A DNA stretch of 64,000 nt, from the NCBI GenBank assembly GCA_947502835.1, contig CANNBJ010000005.1:40429-104428 (forward strand). Reading direction: 5' to 3'. The notes under the pieces were generated by a model, which was given only the letters and a program-made list of their open reading frames with translations, was not told the origin of the DNA and did no database searches. Source of the stretch: Bdellovibrionales bacterium (lineage in GTDB: Bacteria > Bdellovibrionota > UBA1018 > CAIMNF01). The translations under genes were made by a program, and so were the position numbers. Positions 7,548 to 55,875 of the stretch are shown one piece after another. How positions within the stretch are numbered: position 1 is the stretch's first letter; each line of letters opens with the position of its first letter.

Positions 7548-8842
7548 TCCGGATCGAGAATGGATTCGTGGTGGACCCCTCTCAAGGAGTGGAGGGAGAC
7601 TTTGACCTTCTGATCGAAGCGGGCAGGATCAAGGCTTTGGATCGCCCGGGGAGTTTTGCCGGTCTCACTGTGTCGGAATCCTTTGATGCACGCGGCAAGG
7701 TGATTGTTCCCGGGCTCATTGATGTGCACGTGCACCTGCGGGAGCCCGGTTTTGAACACAAGGAAACGGTGGCAAGCGGAAGTCGTGCGGCGATTCTTGG
7801 CGGCTTCACAAGCATTGCACCGATGGCGAACACCAGCCCTGTGAATGACCATCCCCTGATCACCGAGGCGATCTTGCACAAGGCCCGCGCGGCGGGGCAG
7901 GCAAGGGTTTTCCCGATTGGTGCAGTCACGAAGGGGCAAAAGGGTGTTGAGCTTGCCGAGATCGGACTCATGGCCCGAGCCGGGATCCGTGCGATCAGTG
8001 ATGATGGAATGCCTGTGATGAATTCCGCGCTCATGAGGCGCGCGATGGAATATGCGCGGATGTTTGATCTTCCGGTGATCAGTCACGCCGAGGACTCGAA
8101 TCTCTCGGGGGGCGCTCCGATGACAGAGGGTGCCGTTTCCTCGCTTTTGGGAGTTTCGGGAAATCCAAACGCGTCCGAGGAAATCATGGTTGCCCGCGAG
8201 ATCGCGCTTTGTCGCTTGACGGGTGCCCGGGTGCATATCGCACATCTTTCAACCCGAGAGGGCCTCGAGATTGTAAAACGTGCAAAGGAGGCCGGCCTTC
8301 CGGTCACTGCGGAAGTGACCCCGCACCATCTTCTGTTGGACGAGGGCTCCTGGCTCACTGGAAGGCATTCCTGTGCCCACCATCAGGTTCGTGCGGACTA
8401 CAAGATGGCGCCTCCGCTTCGCTCGGAGCAGGATCGTGAGGCACTCCTTCATGCACTGAACTCGGGACTCATCGACATGGTCGCATCCGATCACGCACCT
8501 CACGGGTGTGTGGACAAGGAGACCGAAATCGAGATTGCTGCAAACGGGATTCTTGGCTTGCAAACCACGGTTCCACTGCTGCTGGGTTTGGTGAATGCGA
8601 AACGGATGAAACTTTCGCGCATGGTGGAATCCCTTGCGACGGCACCGGCGAAATTGCTCGGACTTCAGGGGTTGGGAACGCTCAAGATTGGATCGCATGC
8701 CGATCTTGCGGTGCTTGATTTGAACGAGTCCTGGACGCTCATGCCAGGCGACCTTGTGTCGAAGAGCGGAAACACCCCGTTTGCGGGACGCACCTTTCAG
8801 GGAAAAGTTCTGCGAACCATGGTGGAAGGAGAATGGAAATGA
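7544..8842 (+). CDS. pyrC: Dihydroorotase
   Basis: DVHVHLREPG metal-binding HxH. Amidohydrolase-fold motifs (HAEDS, ASDHAPH). 4-bp overlap with pyrB. Overlaps carA. Confidence 0.85.
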   Translation: MIRIENGFVVDPSQGVEGDFDLLIEAGRIKALDRPGSFAGLTVSESFDARGKVIVPGLIDVHVHLREPGFEHKETVASGSRAAILGGFTSIAPMANTSPVNDHPLITEAILHKARAAGQARVFPIGAVTKGQKGVELAEIGLMARAGIRAISDDGMPVMNSALMRRAMEYARMFDLPVISHAEDSNLSGGAPMTEGAVSSLLGVSGNPNASEEIMVAREIALCRLTGARVHIAHLSTREGLEIVKRAKEAGLPVTAEVTPHHLLLDEGSWLTGRHSCAHHQVRADYKMAPPLRSEQDREALLHALNSGLIDMVASDHAPHGCVDKETEIEIAANGILGLQTTVPLLLGLVNAKRMKLSRMVESLATAPAKLLGLQGLGTLKIGSHADLAVLDLNESWTLMPGDLVSKSGNTPFAGRTFQGKVLRTMVEGEWK

Positions 8843-9963
8843 AGGGAATGGTGGTCTTGCCCGGTGCAGGGGATGCGGATGATCTGATCTTCGAGGGGGA
8901 ATTGTTCGGCGCCGTTTCGCCAGAGACCGGGAAGAACGTGGTTTTCGGAGAGCTGGTCTTCAACACCTCAATGACGGGCTACCAGGAGATCCTGACCGAT
9001 CCCTCCTACGCAGGGCAAATGGTGTGCTTTACCGCGGCACACATCGGTAACACGGGCGCAAATCCCGAGGATCTTGAGAGTGATTCCATCCGTGCAGAGG
9101 GAGTGATTCTTTCTCATTATTCCCCAAGGCCCTCAAACCACAGGTCGGTGGAACCTCTTCATGAGTTCCTGATGAGGCAGGGAAAGATCGGCATTCATGG
9201 TGTCGATACGCGAAGGCTCACGCTTGTGCTTCGGGATCGGGGCGTCTCTGCCGGAATGATTTTGCCTGCAGCCATGCGAGAGCGGTTGCCCGAGATGAAA
9301 AAAGAACTTCGCGGGAAGAATTACGGGAGCTTCGACTGGATCAAGTCGGTCACCACCGCGACTCCCTATGTTTATCCTGCGAGTCGCGCAGGGGGAGTGT
9401 CGCGGTTCAAGGTCGTTGCCTATGACTATGGCATCAAGGGGCAGTTGCTCAGGGACTTGGCTGCACGCGGGTGCGATTTAACAGTGGTTCCGGCTGATTT
9501 TCCGGCAGAGGAAGTCGAGAAAATGAAACCCGACGGAGTGTTTCTTTCGAATGGTCCGGGCGATCCCGAGCTTGCAACCTATGCGGTGAGGAATGTGAAG
9601 GCACTTCTTGGTCGAACACCCATCTTCGGGGTGTGCATGGGACATCAGATCCTCTCGCTTGCGATGGGGGGAAAGACCTACAAATTGAAATTCGGCCATC
9701 GCGGCGGAAACCAACCCGTGAAGAATCTCGGACCCGGCACAGTCGAGATCAGTTCTCACAATCACGGATATGCAGTGGATCCGGAATCCCTCCCGGATAC
9801 GGTGAAGCTCACGCACGTCAACCTGAATGATGGCTGCTGTGAGGGCATTTCCGTTCCTTCTCTCAATGCATTCTCGGTGCAATACCATCCGGAAAGTTCC
9901 CCCGGACCGCATGATTCAGGATATCTGTTCGATCGTTTCATCGGAATGATGGAGCAGAACTGA
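8833..9963 (+). CDS. carA: Carbamoyl-phosphate synthase small (glutaminase) subunit
   Basis: VFNTSMTGYQEILTDPSY N-domain. GATase triad region GVCMGHQIL. Confidence 0.9.
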   Translation: MEMKGMVVLPGAGDADDLIFEGELFGAVSPETGKNVVFGELVFNTSMTGYQEILTDPSYAGQMVCFTAAHIGNTGANPEDLESDSIRAEGVILSHYSPRPSNHRSVEPLHEFLMRQGKIGIHGVDTRRLTLVLRDRGVSAGMILPAAMRERLPEMKKELRGKNYGSFDWIKSVTTATPYVYPASRAGGVSRFKVVAYDYGIKGQLLRDLAARGCDLTVVPADFPAEEVEKMKPDGVFLSNGPGDPELATYAVRNVKALLGRTPIFGVCMGHQILSLAMGGKTYKLKFGHRGGNQPVKNLGPGTVEISSHNHGYAVDPESLPDTVKLTHVNLNDGCCEGISVPSLNAFSVQYHPESSPGPHDSGYLFDRFIGMMEQN

Positions 9964-10182
9964 ATGAATCACCAGTCCGTCGGCACGCTTCTTCTGGGCA
10001 TTGGTGCCCTTGCGGCCCTGGTCGGTGCGATCGTCTATTTTTTCGGGGACAAGCTCGGGTGGATCGGGCATCTGCCTGGCGACATCAGTTATCAGAATGG
10101 AAATTTCAGTTTTTATTTTCCGCTGACTACTCTCATTCTGGTGAATGCAATCATCTGGGTAGTCATCAAAATCTTCCGTTGA
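9964..10182 (+). CDS. DUF2905 small membrane protein
   Basis: 72 aa, two TM helices. GHLPGDISYQNGNFSFYFP motif typical of DUF2905. Confidence 0.6.
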   Translation: MNHQSVGTLLLGIGALAALVGAIVYFFGDKLGWIGHLPGDISYQNGNFSFYFPLTTLILVNAIIWVVIKIFR

Positions 10183-30046: not shown

Positions 30047-34189
<4,143 letters not shown>

Positions 34190-34259: not shown

Positions 34260-34334
34260 GCGAGCATAGCTCAGCGGTAGAGCACTACCTTCACACGGTA
34301 GGGGTCACAGGTTCAAATCCTGTTGCTCGCACCA
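34260..34334 (+). tRNA. tRNA-Val (anticodon CAC)
   Basis: Cloverleaf by eye. Anticodon stem CTACC/GGTAG, loop TTCACAC. Confidence 0.75.
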
Positions 34335-34420: not shown

Positions 34421-34496
34421 GGGCGATTAGCTCAGTTGGTAGAGCAGGATGTTTACACCGTCAAGGTCGGGAGTTCGAGCCTCTCATCGCCCACCA
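34421..34496 (+). tRNA. tRNA-Val (anticodon TAC)
   Basis: GGGCGATTAGCTCAGTTGGTAGAGC… loop TTTACAC. 3' CCA encoded. Confidence 0.8.
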
Positions 34497-34617
34497 TCCT
34501 TCCGAATTTCCTTTTTTAGTTCATCTCGCATCGGTCTCACTCGCTCAAAGTATTCGTACATACATTTCGCTCGTTCGCCTTGCTCGATTTCCTAAAAAAG
34601 GAAATTGGGAAGGATGG
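34494..34617. repeat. 26-bp-arm imperfect inverted repeat (arms 34494-34519 and 34592-34617) flanking a 72-nt spacer
   Basis: CCATCCTTCCGAATTTCCTTTTTTAG … CTAAAAAAGGAAATTGGGAAGGATGG (1 mismatch). Arm 1 begins inside the 3' CCA of tRNA-Val. Confidence 0.7.
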
Positions 34618-34627
34618 TCGCTCGGTT

Positions 34628-35100
34628 GAGAGGCGAGAAGCGAGTGAGCGGCTGCGGACGAAGCACTGCTTCGGACGCAAGCAAATCATGCAGGATGCAT
34701 GATTGAGTGAGCGAGGTGGCTAGGCGGAGCCGAAGCGGGACGCGCAGGCGAGCGCTTAGCCGAGCCGATCGAATATCAGGCATCCTGCCTTTACACTTCC
34801 ATTCGCCATCCATGGCTGAAGTGAATGCGCGAAGGGGGCCTTTGTCTTTGCCTGCTCAAGTCAGGATCTGCGGTAGGGAATTTAGGGTGTCGATGAACCG
34901 AGTCTTTATGGGGGAGGGGGATTCTGGTGGGCGATGAGAGGCGAGAAGTGAATTTTACGGCCGCGGTGAGCATGAGTAAAAGTCATGTTCACCACGGCAA
35001 GTTCGTGCAGGATGCACGACTTAGTAAAAGAGGTGGCTAGGCGGAGCGGGACGCGGAGGCGAGCGCTTAGCCGAGCCTCATGCATCCATGGCTGAAGTGT
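34628..35100. repeat. Two tandem copies (34628-34824; 34935-35100) of a GC-rich structured non-coding element, period ~307 bp
   Basis: Shared blocks: GAGAGGCGAGAAG[C/T]GA; GCAGGATGCA…AGGTGGCTAGGCGGAGC; GGGACGCG[C/G]AGGCGAGCGCTTAGCCGAGCC; CATCCATGGCTGAAGTG. Each copy has nested inverted repeats GGATGCA…TGCATCC and GGCTAGGC…GCTTAGCC. No ORF. Confidence 0.7.
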
Positions 35101-35276
35101 GTGCTGCCCGGGGCAGGGCGGAGCACTTCACCTCGTTAGTGCATCAGTGTTTTGACTAGAATCGGAATGCCTTGGCTATTTTATCTTCCATTCAGCTACT
35201 TGGAGGGTGATCCATTACCTCATCATTTAAGGCCTCACCAGGTTAGGCCGCGTGTCCAAAGCGACACAGCTTTTCT

Positions 35277-35304
35277 TTGAAGCAGCATGACATTAAACTA
35301 TAAT
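35277..35304 (+). promoter_or_regulatory. Sigma70-like promoter (TTGAAG-16-TATAAT) overlapping the first ATGs of the 949-aa ORF
   Basis: -35 TTGAAG at 35277-35282, 16-nt spacer, -10 TATAAT at 35299-35304. Implies a TSS near 35311 and translation from the downstream ATG at 35354 (MIRILPC…). Confidence 0.45.
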
Positions 35305-49638: not shown

Positions 49639-52600
49639 TTAGAGACCCTGTACCGAGTCAATGATCATGTGATCCACTCCGGTTTGGTTGCTGTCGTTGT
49701 TTCCGAAGCAATAGGGAGTTCCTGTGGAGCTGATGGCACAGAAGGTGTGCTCGGTCGGTGCCTGCGAAATTGAAGTAATATCGGTCATGCCGGGGACTTC
49801 GTAGGATCGCCGGTAGAGCGAGGTGTTGATATTGCCAAGGCCGCGCTGTCCGAAAGAATTCTGTCCCCAGCAAACAAGCTGTGTCGTTCCAGTTGCTTTG
49901 CGTATTCCGCAGGATGAGTTTTGGGTCGAACTAATCGCGGTGATTCGAGTAAGAACCGCACCGCCCTCCTCACCGGATACGACAGAATCAGGGGTTCTTT
50001 GGGAATTGATAGAAACACCGTTTCCGAGCATTCCGTTTGCACCAGCTCCCCAACATTTGACGGTGCTATTATTCAAGAGTGCGCAGGTGAATTTGTTCCC
50101 GGCCGAAATTGCAATCACACCTGAAATATCAGCTTGTTGCGGAATGTTTCCGAATACACCACTCCCACCGGTATCGTTGCCGTATTGACCATTGGTATTG
50201 TCCCCCCAGCATCGCACCGTGCGATCTTGAAGAAGTGCGCATGCGTGATCATAGCCAACGGAAATTTGGGTTGCAGTTGTGATCCCAGAGACTTGTACAG
50301 GCACATTGGATTGGACTCCGGGGCCAGGTATGGCAGGTGCATTACCCAGCTGGCCGCGGGTGTTCATACCCCAACACCACACAGTTTTATCCGAAAGGAG
50401 AGCGCAAGAGTAGTAGTTTCCGGACCCGACTTGATTCGCGTTTGAGATTCCGGAGACTGGTTGTGGAATAAGGGCACCGGAAGTCGAATTATTTCCAATT
50501 GTCCCGAACTGTCCATGTCCCCAACACTTGATGGTCGAATTGCCAAGGAGCGCGCAATAATGAGAGTTTCCCGCGGCAATTGAGGTTGCGGTCAAGCCGG
50601 TTCCAAGATTCACAGTGGTTGCGCTTTTGTAGCCGTTGTTTTGGCTTCCATTCCCGAGTTGACCATTGCTTCCAGCGCCAAAGCATCTGACCTGGCCCGA
50701 AGTGGTGAGTGCGCAGGCGGATGAACCTCCGGATGAAACCTGCCTTAATGGTCCAAGACTGCTAACAAGTGTACCCGTGCTCGGGATCAGAACACTTGGA
50801 TATCCACGACCTGTGCGATAACTGGTGGCAAGACCCCAGCATTTCACGGGAGATTCTGACGACGAGGTCAGGGCACAGACATGATTTTCTCCCATCGAAA
50901 TTTGAAGTGCGTTGCTGATGCCTGCCACGGAAACTGGGCTCAAGCGGGTTGTTTCAGTCCCGTCGCCCAGAATTCCATAACGATTGAGCCCCCAGCACTT
51001 TACTCCACCCGCGCCAGAAAGAACGGCGCAAAAGGAACTTCCTCTTGAGGCGGCGACTACAGAGGTCGCAGAAGTGATACCGTTTGCTGTTGGGTAGGGT
51101 TGCTGTGTGGTAGACCCGTTTCCGATTTGCCCGGACCCGCCTGTCCCCCAACATTTGATTACCCCTCCCATGCGGACGCAGGCGCTCGAGTCGCTCAATG
51201 CAATTGCGGATGCTCCAGTCAGGACGTTTCCAGCAGAGGCGAGCACGTCGACGGCCACTGAAGAAGGTACTCCTGTGTTATTTCCAAGTTGCTTCGTAAA
51301 TGTGCCGTTGGCTCCCCAGCATCTGACCCCGCCATTTGTCCGAACGGCGCAAGAAAACCCGTCTCCTCCAGCAAGTGCACCAGAGGATGGCTGGGCATCG
51401 GTGATTCCCGAAATAGGGAGAGCATAGGTGCTAGGAGAGGTGGTTCCGTTTACGGGGGCGGTTTCGCTTCCCTGGCCCCAGCAATAGACTGATCCTGAAT
51501 TCAGGGTCGCACAAGTGTGATTCGCTCCAGCCGCAATGACCGCGACGTTCGTGAGTGGGGCGCCTGGGCTCGTCTCGATCTGAACTGGGGATAAGGATTT
51601 AACTGTTGAGGTCCCCCCTGCCTGGAGGTTATCGTTGATACCCCAACATTTCACCGTTTGGTCCGATAAAAGGGCGCACGCGTGGAGATAGCCCATGACG
51701 ACTGCGGTTGCGCTATTGATGCCGGACACCGCTCCCGAATTGGGTTGATCCGTGGTGACTCCGCTTCCATTCACGCCATTACCACCCTGGCCCCAGCACC
51801 GAATGGTGCCATCAGAAATCAGGACACAGGAATTATTTGCGCCTAGAGTGGAACTGAGTGCAGAAACTGATCCACTAAAGGCAGAGAGACTCAAGGCCAC
51901 AGAGATGCTCGATTGGGTGCAGGCTCGGTTCAGGGTGCCGTCAATCCGACTCGCCACAGTTGGCTTTGCCACCACTGTCACGGTGCAGGCTGCTCCTTTG
52001 CTGAGGTTTGAGGTGCCGCAGGTGTCACTGACAATCATGAAGTCGGAGGAATTACTCAGTGTCGGAGCACTGCAACCCGTAAGGGTTCCGAATCCGGAAT
52101 TGGTCAAGATGATCTCTTTTTTCGCTGACGCACTTCCGACCCTGACGTTGGCAAAGTCCACTGTAGAATCGGCATATGAGGTAAGAATGGGTGCCGAAGC
52201 GACTCCTGCAACCTCGATCCCATTCGTGGTGGTGGATTGGGTTCGGGTCTCACCGAAGAGGTTCGTACAAGAGCGCGAAAGAGTTGTGGTCTGGCGACCG
52301 GAAGCGGTCGGAGATGCGGCCACTTGGACGACACAGCTTGCTCCAGCTGCGAGATTTGCGGTGCCACAAGTGTCGGACGTGATTCTGAAATGAGTTGAGG
52401 GGCTTAGGGTGGGGGCACTGCAGCCACTGGCCGCACCATTTCCGGAATTGGTGATTGTGAAGGAAAGACCTCCTCCGGTCTCTCCCACTGTGACCGACCC
52501 ATAGGGGCGTGCGACAGGGTCAAAGGTGAGATTCGGAAGGGAAATCGAAACTGTGGCGGTGCCTTCCTGAGAGTTCAGATTATTCGAAAAAACCGAGTAT

Positions 52601-55600
52601 TTGAAGCTACCGCTTGTGGTTCCCAACGCGGATGCGGTCAGGCCCACTTGGCAAACTCCATTGGAGCATTCGCAAGGCAAGGAAATGGTGACATTCGAGA
52701 GATCGGTAATCGAACAGGAGCTGATCGTATCTCCGTCCGGATCAGTCGCGGAGGGAAGTGTGAAGAGCGCCTGGATCGCAGTAACCGGAGTCGTGGGTGC
52801 CCAAGCAAGATTCGATAAAACCGGAGGAGAATTGGAGAGGTTCAAGGTTCCGATATTTGAGGTGAGTCCATCGGCTGTCGTTACGGTGTAGGTGAATGTT
52901 GCGGAGTTTAGCCCGTTGCTGCCCATAATTCCCACCCTGCACACTCCAGACGTGCAGGAACAAGGTGAGGAGACGACGAGACCGCCCGAAGAGATCACGC
53001 TGCAGGCCGTGGCGAGATCGCCCTCACTATCTGTGTAGGGAAGGGTAAGAGTCATTGCGGCTTGGGAGAGGCCTTGCGAAACCGTACTGGCAACCGGAGC
53101 GCGGCTGTTCACAACGCTGATTCCGCTTTGACAGGTGGTGATGGATCCGAGACTTGCCTTGATCGAGCGGATCGTGGTGTTTTGGATTGAAAGCCCGCTA
53201 AAAGTAGCGATCCCTAAGCTAAGTGGTTTGATCAGCGTGCCGCCCAGGCCTGCGTTGATCACTGAGCCGCTGCAATTTGAAGCGTTATATGCGGTCAGAC
53301 TGATCTGGGAGGAGGAGTCCAGAGAGGAGATGTTTCCTAATGAATCCAGCGCAGTCACCACGGGTTGGGTGGAAAAGCTCAAACTGTAGGCGGAAAGGGT
53401 CAGGGGTGCAGGTGGAGTGCTGAATGCGATTGAAGCGGGTGAGCCCGGGCCCACACTGAAACTCGGAAAGACATAATCTGTAAAGGGAATATACAAGTCA
53501 ATATTCCAGGCATTGATTCCCAAGGCTAAGGGGGTATACCGAACGGTATAAAGGCCAGGAGCAGGGTTTGCGACTTGGCCAAAAGTACCCCCGCCCTCGA
53601 CAGTATAAAAGTGAGCCGAGGTCGGAAGGCCAACGGTAGAATAATTTCCAAAATGATCCTCTAAACTCAATTGGATTTCGAGGAGAAAGGCCTCGCCGAC
53701 TCCGCCATGATTGGAAGCGAGCACGTTTACAGAGGTGCTTGAGGTCCTTACCGGAGTCAAACGATTATCAACGGAGCCCGGGGTGACGGGTATCGCGGGT
53801 GAGCAATCTCCGGTGAGGTTCCCGGAACTCACCTTCAGATAAAGCGGGCCTGTTCTGTATTGTTGCCATCCGGGCTCTGATCGACGAAAAGTCAGACTTG
53901 ATACCGTTGCCGTACCACTGGTCATGCTGAGCGAATTGCACGAAGCTTCGTTGCAGAGGAGACTGGATAGAAAATATCTATTGGTGAAAGCGGGAGATGC
54001 GACCGTACATCCGGCATCATCGTACAAGGCGAGTTGCGCTGTGCCTGAAGTGGATACTTTATTGTGATAGGCATCATGGATCTCAAAGGAAAGTCCGGAG
54101 GCAATCGGAGTACCGGCCGTGGCCGTACTCGGCACTTGCGAAAAAGTAACCTGAGTTGCAACACCTTGCAGCGGTCCCGGAGCAACATTGAAGCCACTGG
54201 TGCACGAGGTGATACTGCCAAAGATCGCTTTGATGGACTTCATCGAAGTGCTGAGGGCGCTCACGGACGAAAAACTTGCAACCCCATTGACGAGGGATTT
54301 GCTTACGTTCATCGGGGTTGAGCCCCCGCCTAAGCCAAATTTGAGCTCTGATCCCTCGCAATTGAGATCGGAATAAGCCGCAATTCGTACTGTGCCACTT
54401 GCGCTGGCAAGAAGATTGTCATAGGGATCCCGGACCGAAATTTGAGGCTGGCTTGTAAAAACCATGCCTGCAGTGAGGGAGGCGGGGGCTGGGTCAAGGT
54501 CCCAAGTGAGTCGAGACGCGGCGCCTGCGCTAACCGTTACACTTGCGCTCGCAGAGGTGATGCCGGTGCTTGCTGCGGTGATGGTGATTGATCCAGCGGT
54601 CTTGAGAGTGACGGAAAAAGATCCAGTGCCTGATGTCAGAGATGAAGCTGAGGGAAGGATTGCTTGAGTATCGCTTGAGGTGAAAGAGACAGGGTTTGCA
54701 AAGGATGTAGCCGTGTTTCCGTTTCCATCAAGAGCAGTGATTGTGACATCGAAGGCCGTTCCGGCAGGAGTGGATGCAGGAACAGAGGAGAAGCTCAGGC
54801 GAGTGGCGGCCCCTGGAATCACGGTGACGGAGTCATTGGCCAAGACAAGTGAGCCAGAGATGGAAGCGCCAAGAATGACTGAGCCTGCGAGAACCCCCGT
54901 GAAACTTGAGGTGTAGAAGCCCGATCCCGAGGAGTCAATCCTATCAAAACTTCCGGTCCCGCCAACCGAACTTGAAGTGAAGAGGATTGAGGAGTCAGAG
55001 GGGAGGCCTGAGGGATTCGAGTTCCCGAACTGGTCTTTGGCAGTGAGGGAGATGGAGATCGAATCGCCTGAGGCGACAGAAGCCGCTGATGCGGTGACAG
55101 AGGACTCGGCGAGGGAGTAGGCGCCCGGGTTGATCGAGAAGGCGCGGGAACAGGCAGAGATCAAGCCCGCACTTGTCGCTCCCAAAAAGAGCGACTGACT
55201 TGCAAGGTTCACCCTGACATTTTCAAACTGGAGCTCACCGGAAGCAGAATTTCCGCTCAAGCTCCCCGAGAGGGAATCACTTCGATTCGGAGTGGTTGCA
55301 ACCGGCACTTGGCAGTCGGAATCCGAAAAGAGTGAAAGAACGATGGGAATGGAATTTGCGGTGGTGAGAGCATCTGTTTCCGAAAGGATCTGAACTTTGG
55401 GTTGTACCGAGAGCAATGCGCCGGCCTGAAGGCCGGTCGTAGCGATGGGCTGGACGGCAAAGATCAGGTGATGAGGCACCACTGAAGGGCTTGCTGAAAG
55501 AGTAATGCTGACCGGGCTTGAGTCGAGAGATCCGTGATCATTCACTGCGGTCACTTTGAACTCATAGGTCGTATTGTTTTGGAGACCGCTCACCACATAA

Positions 55601-55875
55601 GGCGAAGCGGCCCGGTCGCTTGCGAGAGTGAAGTTTGAAGCGCCCGAGATCCGATAGTAGACCGAGTAGGCGGAAGCATTCTTGGAGGAGCTCCATTGCA
55701 GGGTGGCCTCGAGGATTCCCGGAGAGGCCGACAGGATTTCAAATCGATTGGGCGAAATGAGGAAGGGTGTGTGATTCAGGTTGAAGGTTGAGCCGGACGA
55801 GCCCAAAAGGGGATTGCCGGTGCAAGCCCCTAACATGGAGATCAAGAACAACGATTGAATCCACTGAAATTTCAT
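49639..55875 (-). CDS. Giant (2078 aa) surface lipoprotein: N-terminal FN3, multiple Ig-like/choice-of-anchor-D domains, C-terminal RCC1/BLIP-II β-propeller repeats
   Basis: Lipoprotein signal MKFQWIQSLFLISMLGAC. FN3-like YSVYYRISGASNFT…YEFKVTAVN. ITNSGNGAASGCSAPTLS…TCGT choice-of-anchor-D units. ≥7 RCC1-type repeats (YHACALLSDQTVKCWG, GANHTCATLNSGSVYCWG…). Confidence 0.8.
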   Translation of the reverse strand: MKFQWIQSLFLISMLGACTGNPLLGSSGSTFNLNHTPFLISPNRFEILSASPGILEATLQWSSSKNASAYSVYYRISGASNFTLASDRAASPYVVSGLQNNTTYEFKVTAVNDHGSLDSSPVSITLSASPSVVPHHLIFAVQPIATTGLQAGALLSVQPKVQILSETDALTTANSIPIVLSLFSDSDCQVPVATTPNRSDSLSGSLSGNSASGELQFENVRVNLASQSLFLGATSAGLISACSRAFSINPGAYSLAESSVTASAASVASGDSISISLTAKDQFGNSNPSGLPSDSSILFTSSSVGGTGSFDRIDSSGSGFYTSSFTGVLAGSVILGASISGSLVLANDSVTVIPGAATRLSFSSVPASTPAGTAFDVTITALDGNGNTATSFANPVSFTSSDTQAILPSASSLTSGTGSFSVTLKTAGSITITAASTGITSASASVTVSAGAASRLTWDLDPAPASLTAGMVFTSQPQISVRDPYDNLLASASGTVRIAAYSDLNCEGSELKFGLGGGSTPMNVSKSLVNGVASFSSVSALSTSMKSIKAIFGSITSCTSGFNVAPGPLQGVATQVTFSQVPSTATAGTPIASGLSFEIHDAYHNKVSTSGTAQLALYDDAGCTVASPAFTNRYFLSSLLCNEASCNSLSMTSGTATVSSLTFRRSEPGWQQYRTGPLYLKVSSGNLTGDCSPAIPVTPGSVDNRLTPVRTSSTSVNVLASNHGGVGEAFLLEIQLSLEDHFGNYSTVGLPTSAHFYTVEGGGTFGQVANPAPGLYTVRYTPLALGINAWNIDLYIPFTDYVFPSFSVGPGSPASIAFSTPPAPLTLSAYSLSFSTQPVVTALDSLGNISSLDSSSQISLTAYNASNCSGSVINAGLGGTLIKPLSLGIATFSGLSIQNTTIRSIKASLGSITTCQSGISVVNSRAPVASTVSQGLSQAAMTLTLPYTDSEGDLATACSVISSGGLVVSSPCSCTSGVCRVGIMGSNGLNSATFTYTVTTADGLTSNIGTLNLSNSPPVLSNLAWAPTTPVTAIQALFTLPSATDPDGDTISSCSITDLSNVTISLPCECSNGVCQVGLTASALGTTSGSFKYSVFSNNLNSQEGTATVSISLPNLTFDPVARPYGSVTVGETGGGLSFTITNSGNGAASGCSAPTLSPSTHFRITSDTCGTANLAAGASCVVQVAASPTASGRQTTTLSRSCTNLFGETRTQSTTTNGIEVAGVASAPILTSYADSTVDFANVRVGSASAKKEIILTNSGFGTLTGCSAPTLSNSSDFMIVSDTCGTSNLSKGAACTVTVVAKPTVASRIDGTLNRACTQSSISVALSLSAFSGSVSALSSTLGANNSCVLISDGTIRCWGQGGNGVNGSGVTTDQPNSGAVSGINSATAVVMGYLHACALLSDQTVKCWGINDNLQAGGTSTVKSLSPVQIETSPGAPLTNVAVIAAGANHTCATLNSGSVYCWGQGSETAPVNGTTSPSTYALPISGITDAQPSSGALAGGDGFSCAVRTNGGVRCWGANGTFTKQLGNNTGVPSSVAVDVLASAGNVLTGASAIALSDSSACVRMGGVIKCWGTGGSGQIGNGSTTQQPYPTANGITSATSVVAASRGSSFCAVLSGAGGVKCWGLNRYGILGDGTETTRLSPVSVAGISNALQISMGENHVCALTSSSESPVKCWGLATSYRTGRGYPSVLIPSTGTLVSSLGPLRQVSSGGSSACALTTSGQVRCFGAGSNGQLGNGSQNNGYKSATTVNLGTGLTATSIAAGNSHYCALLGNSTIKCWGHGQFGTIGNNSTSGALIPQPVSGISNANQVGSGNYYSCALLSDKTVWCWGMNTRGQLGNAPAIPGPGVQSNVPVQVSGITTATQISVGYDHACALLQDRTVRCWGDNTNGQYGNDTGGSGVFGNIPQQADISGVIAISAGNKFTCALLNNSTVKCWGAGANGMLGNGVSINSQRTPDSVVSGEEGGAVLTRITAISSTQNSSCGIRKATGTTQLVCWGQNSFGQRGLGNINTSLYRRSYEVPGMTDITSISQAPTEHTFCAISSTGTPYCFGNNDSNQTGVDHMIIDSVQGL

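Follow-up and report, generated by a model that had tools for sequence, protein, structure and literature searches.

Genomic islands at ssrA, the tmRNA gene of Dehalococcoides (ssrA-GIs), insert midway along the T-loop, form tandem direct repeats and bear a conserved motif that lies just upstream of every such repeat (PMC3146451). Here we describe an arrangement that recalls these islands in a 64,000-nucleotide stretch of a Bdellovibrionales bacterium (assembly GCA_947502835.1, contig CANNBJ010000005.1, positions 40,429 to 104,428; the whole stretch is called the window), in which two diverged tandem units, at ~34615-34812 and ~34925-35088, lie downstream of the valine tRNA gene tRNA-Val(UAC). 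As in the ssrA-GIs, ~20 nt at the 3′ end of the host gene recur as a direct repeat, elements accrete in tandem downstream of that gene and a conserved sequence precedes each repeat (PMC3146451). Unlike the islands, the modules measure 150–300 bp rather than kilobases, carry no integrase or other gene, contain an inverted copy of the target and have a covarying single-strand fold. We take the window copies to belong, in tandem, to an undescribed family of small (~150–300 bp), protein-less insertion modules that occupy tRNA and tmRNA genes at their 3′ end. The reading we favour on sequence evidence, with a probability of about 0.55, is that they would be non-autonomous insertion modules moved by an enzyme supplied in trans.

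Other described systems share part of this design. Like cis-mobilizable elements (CIMEs) and miniature inverted-repeat transposable elements (MITEs), the modules are non-autonomous and non-coding, have att-like or terminal repeats and are presumably moved in trans; unlike them, they occupy one locus per genome instead of being dispersed, their 'terminal repeats' copy the target gene and not a transposon end, and they have no known parent. In integron attC sites, in attP(+) of CTXphi and at the ends of IS200/IS605 elements (the guide sequences of IS608), a strand-specific hairpin rebuilds or recognises the target by pairing. The modules likewise have a strand-specific, G·T-bearing hairpin, and by analogy their order (tRNA end X, loop, inverted copy or anti, the rest, X again) would fit the insertion of a folded single-stranded circle; they differ in addressing a tRNA T-loop and not attI, dif or a tetranucleotide, in pairing over 17–23 nt, and in that no IntI, Xer-exploiting phage or TnpA was identified. 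Eighteen nucleotides is the length of the retroviral primer-binding site, and the second window unit (copy B) has, as in retroviruses and long-terminal-repeat (LTR) elements, an 18-nt perfect complement of a specific tRNA 3′ end including CCA. In contrast to those elements, its setting is bacterial, reverse transcriptase and LTRs are missing, and the complement runs on into the T-loop and the flank. Finally, the modules resemble the RNAs 3′ETS-leuZ and YrlA in being structured, in being encoded beside a tRNA and in having tRNA-derived helices at their ends, but they match no Rfam family, a terminator separates them from the tRNA, a duplicated tRNA end flanks them and they are present or absent between strains. 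Literature searches, sequence strings included, returned no description of the element.

A common layout at eight host genes

An exact-match scan of species-genome and metagenome collections with the query GGCTAGGCGGAGC-N(0-30)-GCGCTTAGCC placed the hairpin in at least 11 further loci, 10 of them just downstream of a tRNA or tmRNA gene. The species genomes contributed at least six loci, comprising two Bdellovibrionales metagenome-assembled genomes (same tRNA-Val locus), three Saccharibacteria and one Paceibacterota, and the metagenomes at least six more, some on unassigned contigs. Among the matches listed, each of the six species genomes matched has a single exact match. The host genes number eight, the window's included: Val-UAC (the window, L002 and L005), Gln-UUG (L003), Ser-GGA (L004 and L012), Ala-UGC (L006), Trp-CCA (L007), Tyr-GUA (L008), Glu-CUC (L010) and tmRNA, the last a locus recovered on two contigs, L009 and L011, that agree in sequence around the unit. 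The hairpin lies 107–230 nt from the host gene, downstream and on the same strand, at every matched locus but L013, a Bdellovibrionales-type copy beside which ARAGORN calls no tRNA.

Read along the tRNA-sense strand, the order is constant: the host gene; a terminator-like hairpin, S; anti; a linker (GAAGGCGAGCGCGG or GAGAAGCGAGTGAGCGG); a helix, P1; a second linker; a hairpin, P2; and a direct repeat, DR. In anti, the stretch of the host gene that runs from T54 to the 3′ end stands as its reverse complement; DR, placed right after P2, is a direct copy of that gene from C56 onward. At six of the eight host loci from the candidate phyla radiation (CPR), anti begins at T54 and ends 44–45 nt before P2, with scores of 14–19 against a shuffle maximum of at most 11; it matches the host genes over 16–21 aligned nt in six CPR loci and is weakly complementary in L003 and L012. 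The DR begins at C56, overlapping the last C of P2, again at six of the eight. It is perfect in L003 (18 nt), in L009 (19 nt), at a further tRNA-Val(UAC) locus, L025 (21 nt including CCA), and at the second relic of L004 (18 nt), and decayed in L008, L010, L012 and the window. Since anti extends 2 nt deeper into the T-loop than DR, it matches the intact gene and not the repeat. Each module is bounded by its host gene, which is intact, and by a direct copy of that gene's 3′ end, which is displaced; the modules have piled up in tandem and then decayed; among CPR loci, tandem decayed relics occur in L004, L009 and L010, with the second units of L004 and L010 internally deleted. A strong terminator-like hairpin with a T-run separates the tRNA from anti in most loci. 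No locus has a gene between core and direct repeat, nor is there a sizeable open reading frame (ORF) between host gene and direct repeat in L003 or L004.

This layout bears on several of the options named in the original prediction, which had seen in the two window copies a duplicated structured small RNA, a regulatory RNA or an element of the repetitive extragenic palindromic (REP) or MITE type. A mere local duplication of a small RNA does not account for a core that recurs in other phyla, fused to tRNA or tmRNA 3′ ends with target-matched inverted and direct repeats. REP elements, or the bacterial interspersed mosaic elements built on them, fare no better, as neither pattern nor covariance model finds another copy in the window and the six matching species genomes have one exact match each. 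A MITE-like mobile nature is the best fit of the options named, with reservations: inverted copies, anti and DR, do flank the core, but they are copies of the host tRNA, the duplication measures 18–21 nt, and in place of dispersed copies with an autonomous parent we found one locus per carrier and no relative in phage, plasmid or IMG/VR sequences. Searches of the core by blastn against cultured phages and plasmids gave chance matches of 20–37 nt only, and of the pattern scans of IMG/VR one gave three matches, which lie inside coding sequence without the partner strand and are thus chance, and the others gave none. The loci share with tRNA/tmRNA islands a direct repeat at the far boundary, perfect over 18–21 nt from C56 in L003, L004, L009 and L025, and with CIMEs a non-coding unit flanked by a host 3′ end and its direct repeat. 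The integrase that an island would carry inside is missing from these 150–300-bp units, and Pfam found no recombinase domain in the flanking ORFs scanned at the window, L002, L005, L006 and L009.

Further candidates were set aside. The 18–21-nt target duplication does not agree with a palindrome-associated transposable element derived from IS200/IS605. A T-box riboswitch finds no Rfam T-box match, and the downstream genes are mutually unrelated. For an IS110 bridge RNA or an OMEGA guide RNA there is neither an adjacent cognate gene nor a match to HEARO or another Rfam family. ARAGORN finds no tmRNA, permuted tmRNA or intron-containing tRNA in the units on either strand, and hammerhead-like motifs in anti are just the T-arm complement.

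Two neighbourhoods deserve separate mention. Downstream of the tmRNA-linked unit, at L009 positions 7560-8040 (minus strand), the 3′ end of the tmRNA recurs in at least four more decayed copies (CGATTCC...), together with two small hairpins with anti- and X-like arms and a divergent unit whose P2 is different. In L007, positions 898-1410, which lie about 1 kb downstream of the unit at the Saccharibacteria tRNA-Trp, match the class A bacterial RNase P RNA over the full model length but below threshold (60 bits against a gathering score of 100), and this is probably a divergent CPR RNase P RNA.

A fold valid on the tRNA-sense strand

RNAalifold run on eight CPR units returned a three-way junction of P0, P1 and P2, in which P0 is the helix between anti and DR. 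P1 is a long helix with the base GCGAGCGCG/CGCGYGAGC, which includes tandem G·A, and an AGCA-like loop; its distal 8 bp are hypervariable, with compensatory changes in six of those eight pairs. P2 has the stem GGCUAGGCG/CGCUUAGCC and a GA-rich internal loop; since P2 was the search pattern, the invariance of this stem carries no weight. Tandem G·A is found in P1, in P2 and at the top of the anti helix, as read from the alignment. Paired cells make up 99.6% of the core, against 87.7% when shuffled and 24–41% when the partners are slid. Ten pairs are changed on both sides, and 15 G·U cells are accompanied by zero A·C cells, so the fold is valid only on the tRNA-sense strand, which in this structural model points to a single-stranded form, RNA or single-stranded DNA (ssDNA). 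The distal stem of P1 does not derive from its surroundings: compared with local and host sequence, it gave chance-level matches of 7–8 nt only, and the idea that it is copied from either was dropped.

In addition to P0, the tRNA from T54 to its 3′ end can pair with anti across S, which forms a long hairpin of ~40–50 bp (z = −9.4 in L025). So modelled, the modules would share with folded single-strand att sites a strand-specific hairpin that rebuilds a double-stranded target.

To this fold the Bdellovibrionales units add a second small hairpin, P1b, and they show compensatory changes of their own. A covariance model built from CPR units only matches both window copies (34925-35096, E = 4e-7; 34671-34763, E = 1.2e-6) and nothing else in the window. 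Both copies also fold better than shuffles on the plus strand (z = −3.4 and −4.6). The view that the region is structured, conserved and non-coding, and not random intergenic DNA, is upheld. Rfam, by contrast, offers no family for either unit, even at E up to 10: for the window with Rfam 15, only the tRNA model reaches its gathering score and all else falls well below, and on four CPR loci (E up to 1) the units match nothing.

The strand specificity of the fold is equally what a structured non-coding RNA gene would have. On that reading the units would be read through from the tRNA promoter, a 3′-trailer-type RNA would be the functional product and mobility would be secondary, and the pairing of anti with the direct repeat or with the tRNA end would form a processing site for RNase P, RNase Z or RNase III. 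In its favour are a position that is always immediately downstream of a tRNA or tmRNA gene and on that gene's strand, strong compensatory covariation in which the G·U pairs restrict the fold to the sense strand, the abundance of tandem G·A motifs typical of RNA and the single match in each of the six exact-match genomes. Against it, neither window unit is preceded by a promoter-like site, and in most loci the strong terminator-like hairpin with its T-run stands between tRNA and anti. Decay has gone on freely in the direct repeats of L008, L010, L012 and the window, so the closing helix between anti and repeat is not maintained. Together with the absence of the element from close relatives and of any matching Rfam family, these observations lead us to regard a resident RNA gene as unlikely.

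The window copies and their setting

Positions and assignments in the window are collected in Table 1. The original prediction of two tandem copies with four blocks in the same order holds, with spacings of 276–317 nt and identities of 78–94%; overall column identity between copies A and B is 75%. A 16-mer and a 20-mer of the central hairpin (GGTGGCTAGGCGGAGC and GGCGAGCGCTTAGCCGAGCC) each occur exactly twice in the 64 kb, where chance would give 0.38 and 0.01 occurrences. The inner inverted repeat that had been proposed, GGCTAGGCG/CGCTTAGCC, is real, as are two insertions in copy A, CCGAAG in the hairpin loop and ~33 nt after the hairpin. The outer pair GGATGCA...TGCATCC is present in both copies (I3 in A, 14 nt at 93%; I11 in B, 10 nt at 90%) but is not kept in homologues, where GGATGCA is part of a local hairpin, TCGTGCA-GGA-TGCACGA. 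This hairpin is P1b, and it shows a compensatory G:C to A:T change between copies A and B. P1b of the two units differs by this compensatory pair, and their P1a helices differ completely; the first hairpin is longer in copy B than in copy A. The statement that no ORF covers the region is true in a loose sense only, given that mechanical ORFs of up to 76 aa overlap it; the compensatory changes make it unlikely that these are coding.

Table 1. Features of the tRNA-Val(UAC) array and its neighbours, in window coordinates
Feature	Position	Strand	Basis or remark
rpoC, in the rplK-rpoBC region	30047-34189		
tRNA-Val(CAC)	34260-34334		next after rpoC
tRNA-Val(UAC), host gene	34421..34496	+	ARAGORN, Rfam
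X, host segment from T54 to CCA, TTCGAGCCTCTCATCGCCCACCA	34474-34496		
S, spacer of ~125 nt with palindromic arms CCATCCTTCCGAATTTCCTTTTTTAG / CTAAAAAAGGAAATTGGGAAGGATGG	34494..34617	+	inverted repeat I1, 38 nt at 84%
anti_A, TGGTCGCTCGGTTGAGAGGCGAGAA, degenerate reverse complement of X	34615..34639	+	inverted repeat I5
Unit A linker GCGAGTGAGCGG + P1a + P1b	34640..34715	+	inverted repeat I6, fold
Unit A P1a, with tandem G·A internal loop	34652-34681	+	
Unit A P1b, ATCATGCA-GGA-TGCATGAT	34685-34703	+	
Unit A P2, conserved hairpin, GTGGCTAGGCGGAGC-CGAAGCGGGACGCGCAGGC-GAGCGCTTAGCC	34716..34761	+	
Direct copy of the tRNA 3′ end following unit A, decayed	34761..34812	+	place equivalent to perfect repeats of L003, L009, L025
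J, junction between units, starting TGGCTGAAGTGAATGC = flank after unit B	34813..34924	+	direct repeat D5
anti_B, TGGTGGGCGATGAGAGGCGAGAA	34925..34947	+	inverted repeat I2; chance expectation 0.00
Unit B linker + P1a + P1b	34948..35032	+	fold; consensus with L002, L005, L013 including compensatory changes
Unit B P1a	34959-34998	+	
Unit B P1b, TCGTGCA-GGA-TGCACGA	35003-35019	+	
Unit B P2, conserved hairpin, GTGGCTAGGCGGAGC-GGGACGCGGAGGC-GAGCGCTTAGCC	35033..35072	+	
DR_B, CGAGCCTCATGCATCCA, decayed direct copy of tRNA positions 56 to CCA	35072..35088	+	
Hairpin TGGCTGAAGTGTGTGCTGCCCGGGGCAGGGCGGAGCACTTCACC	35089..35132	+	read from sequence
Block 1, copy A / copy B	34627-34643 / 34935-34951		94% identity
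Block 2, copy A / copy B	34686-34744 / 35003-35061		78% identity
Block 3, copy A / copy B	34728-34766 / 35039-35077		92% identity
Block 4, copy A / copy B	34807-34828 / 35083-35104		91% identity
949-aa ORF	35303-38152		
2078-aa protein	49639-55875	minus	RCC1/WD40_RLD repeats + fn3 + Ig-like domains

Each copy opens with the reverse complement of the tRNA-Val(UAC) 3′ end, a feature that the original prediction had not remarked on. In anti_B it covers the last 23 nt of the gene including CCA and matches at 21 of 23 positions, with no mismatch among the first 18; L002 and L005 keep its first 19 nt (TGGTGGGCGATGAGAGGCG) unaltered while their flanks drift. In anti_A the CCA and the T-arm part have been retained and the acceptor part replaced; the T-arm part, TGAGAGGCGAGAA, is common to both antis. 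S is a separate element that abuts the CCA end of the gene; its palindromic arms (CCAtcCTTCCGAATTTCCTTTTTT...AAAAAAGGAAATTGGGAAGgaTGG) take in the tRNA CCA, in which the left arm starts, and a matching TGG. The P2 stems of both copies are identical to those of the Saccharibacteria and Paceibacterota loci.

The direct repeats of the window are less well kept. The repeat after unit A consists of CGAGCC (from T-loop C56), a 33-nt insertion specific to this copy (34767-34799) and CATTCGCCATCCA (34800-34812), and DR_B has decayed at the very position where L025 has a perfect CGAGCCTCTCATCGCCCACCA. Both units are followed by the same flank, TGGCTGAAGTG, and junction J is conserved with drift in L002 and L005. 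The hairpin that closes the array is placed after the last direct repeat, and so is probably the original downstream hairpin of the tRNA gene, now displaced. Decayed direct repeats beside an intact anti_B and two intact P2 stems, the shared flank and a reshuffled order in L005 indicate that the window units are old insertions later rearranged by local recombination, neither a fresh pair nor a simple recent duplication, whose cores are therefore still under constraint.

By its RpoC homologues the organism falls among Bdellovibrionales/Oligoflexia metagenome-assembled genomes. The repeats occupy the 806-nt gap between tRNA-Val(UAC) and a 949-aa ORF. The latter had been called toxin-like, a label for which searches of Pfam, NCBIfam and PDB sequences gave no match in support. 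Its GC content is 0.41–0.52, mostly ~0.45, compared with ~0.55 for rpoC, and since it is missing downstream of the array in L002 and L005 it looks like strain-specific cargo at a tRNA-Val hot spot; lacking a domain match as well, it was dropped as a possible part of the system. A locus found through the 949-aa protein, L001, has the same sequence as the window over the array and both units. The 2078-aa protein listed in Table 1 lies farther along the window.

Turnover, mechanism and meaning

The 76-nt tRNA-Val(UAC) gene is identical in L002, L005, L014, L016, L017 and L018, with the same reading in L023-L025, and what follows it was compared among relatives whose RpoC is 88–98% identical to the window's. 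Two of them, L017 (RpoC 90%) and L018 (88%), have an ordinary terminator and no unit. In L014/L015 (95%) the S element alone, with no core units, follows both tRNA-Val(UAC) and tRNA-Val(CAC) (L014 8266-8410 and 8528-8652). L005 (98.5%) has three units, of which the middle one has a P2 variant and the third comes after half of S, and L002 has one unit and an orphan anti. The clearest comparison is between L024 and L025, which encode the same RpoC protein and whose DNA stays identical until 4 nt beyond the tRNA: from there L024 has a plain terminator, and L025 has S, anti, core and a perfect 21-nt DR. The L025 anti is complementary at 14 of 17 positions while its DR is perfect, so anti is carried by the element and not copied at insertion. 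In L025 and L023 the core (L025 6975-7145; L023 7445-7585) is of a second type at the same tRNA, ending ...AAGCTTCTGAGCAGGAGCGAAGAAGCGCAGGC directly before DR; it has P1b, CTTAGGAAA and GAAG..GCGCAGGC in common with the window units but is without the GGCTAGGCG/CGCTTAGCC stem. The covariance model does not match this type, and the family is thus wider than our census. At the CPR tmRNA locus a corresponding comparison with an empty site is unusable because the nearest homologue of the neighbouring DinG-like helicase is only 62% identical.

The same gene attracts other mobile DNA. L016 (RpoC 91%) has an island in which a large serine recombinase (8301-10046; Resolvase + Recombinase + Zn_ribbon_recom) lies immediately downstream of tRNA-Val(UAC), here too the identical gene, and small helix-turn-helix genes come after it; this is a different mobile element that uses the same tRNA. 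With the low-GC, strain-specific cargo after the window array and an ORF6N/Rha-like gene after that of L002, it marks tRNA-Val(UAC) as an integration hot spot. The units could on this account be scars, the attL-proximal ends of larger prophages or islands that were later deleted, and the core would be recombinase-binding DNA, in keeping with the conserved motif directly upstream of each direct repeat in the Dehalococcoides ssrA islands (PMC3146451). Random deletions would not, however, leave a right boundary at exactly the same nucleotide, the core stopping at C56, in six of eight CPR host loci; nor would sites that protein binds as double-stranded DNA have stems that are hypervariable and still perfectly compensated, or G·U pairs specific to one strand. 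Add to this that a gene between core and direct repeat was seen in no locus and that the phage, plasmid and IMG/VR collections gave no matches, and deleted islands become a decidedly doubtful explanation.

We therefore return to the favoured reading, a non-autonomous module moved in trans. A DR running from the T-loop to the acceptor end, an intact host gene with a new terminator, tandem accretion and differences between strains argue for insertion that would be site-specific. Its target would be the T-loop, between positions 55 and 56, as it is for genomic islands that address this loop. The inserting module would bring a replacement tRNA 3′ end and a terminator. Since it encodes nothing, a recombinase or transposase would have to act in trans, and the module would be non-autonomous in the manner of a CIME or MITE. 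The order X, hairpin, anti, core, X is the one expected if a circle carrying one X had integrated. On a single strand, ssDNA or RNA, X paired with anti would rebuild the target duplex and present the attachment sequence beside the conserved core; anti makes sense if the element acts as such a folded strand.

Several points weigh against this reading. An excised form, a circle junction or a transcript has not been seen. Among the flanking ORFs scanned (window, L002, L005, L006 and L009) there is no candidate enzyme. One match per genome, as in each of the six exact-match genomes, is not what a proliferating MITE would give and agrees also with a resident RNA gene, as does the perfect complementarity of anti_B to the live tRNA, which is kept in three genomes where flanks drift and direct repeats decay. 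The 'empty' sites are not syntenic downstream and the L025 contig ends 5 nt beyond its direct repeat, so that the insertion boundaries rest on repeat structure. Local duplication and unequal crossing-over can explain part of the window arrays, because copy 3 of L005 repeats copy 1 with half of S. The invariance of P2 is partly the result of an exact-pattern search. Lastly, the retargeting of anti and DR to eight host genes is unexplained.

A further alternative is a guided or tRNA-primed element. Here anti, at 17–23 nt, would be a guide or primer-binding site that steers a recombinase, HUH transposase or reverse transcriptase acting in trans to the tRNA 3′ end, and base pairing would thus program the target. 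Over 16–21 aligned nt, anti does match the different host genes at six CPR loci; in copy B its complement is the last 18 nt with CCA; it reaches T54 where DR reaches only C56 and thus fits the intact target; and it is element-borne in L025, where it is imperfect beside a perfect DR. Yet no gene for a reverse transcriptase, an HUH or IS110-type enzyme or any other enzyme lies nearby, complementarity is weak in L003 and L012, a guide paired with the element's own copy of the target would be mostly sequestered, and no known system works in this way; we hold it to be a long shot. Pfam found no integrase, transposase or reverse transcriptase in the flanking ORFs (window, L002, L005, L006 and L009), and an enzyme encoded beside the element was dropped as a candidate after neighbouring ORFs at five loci and in the right half of the window gave none.

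That a target-matched inverted segment adjoins a conserved fold suggests that base pairing, rather than a dedicated integrase, recognises the target, which would be of interest for mobile-element biology and as a possible principle of programmable insertion. Taken to its full extent, this would describe a protein-less mobile element with its insertion site set by pairing, in which the 17–23-nt anti would select the T-loop-to-3′ end of a tRNA or tmRNA gene for an enzyme in trans and the element would insert as a folded single strand, ssDNA or RNA-derived, that rebuilds the tRNA. We put this forward as a speculative idea of low probability. If true, CPR bacteria and Bdellovibrionales would possess a natural insertion system that is guided by nucleic acid and can be retargeted.

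At its most conservative, the finding is a well-supported, covarying structured motif new to Rfam, and the clutter of 'tRNA fragments' downstream of tRNA genes in these lineages is thereby explained. If the favoured reading is true, the modules would be the smallest known class of tRNA/tmRNA-targeted insertion elements, a few hundred bases of pure structure. Each would replace the end of an essential gene, would not be easily lost, and would cross between the phyla of ultra-small episymbionts and predatory bacteria.

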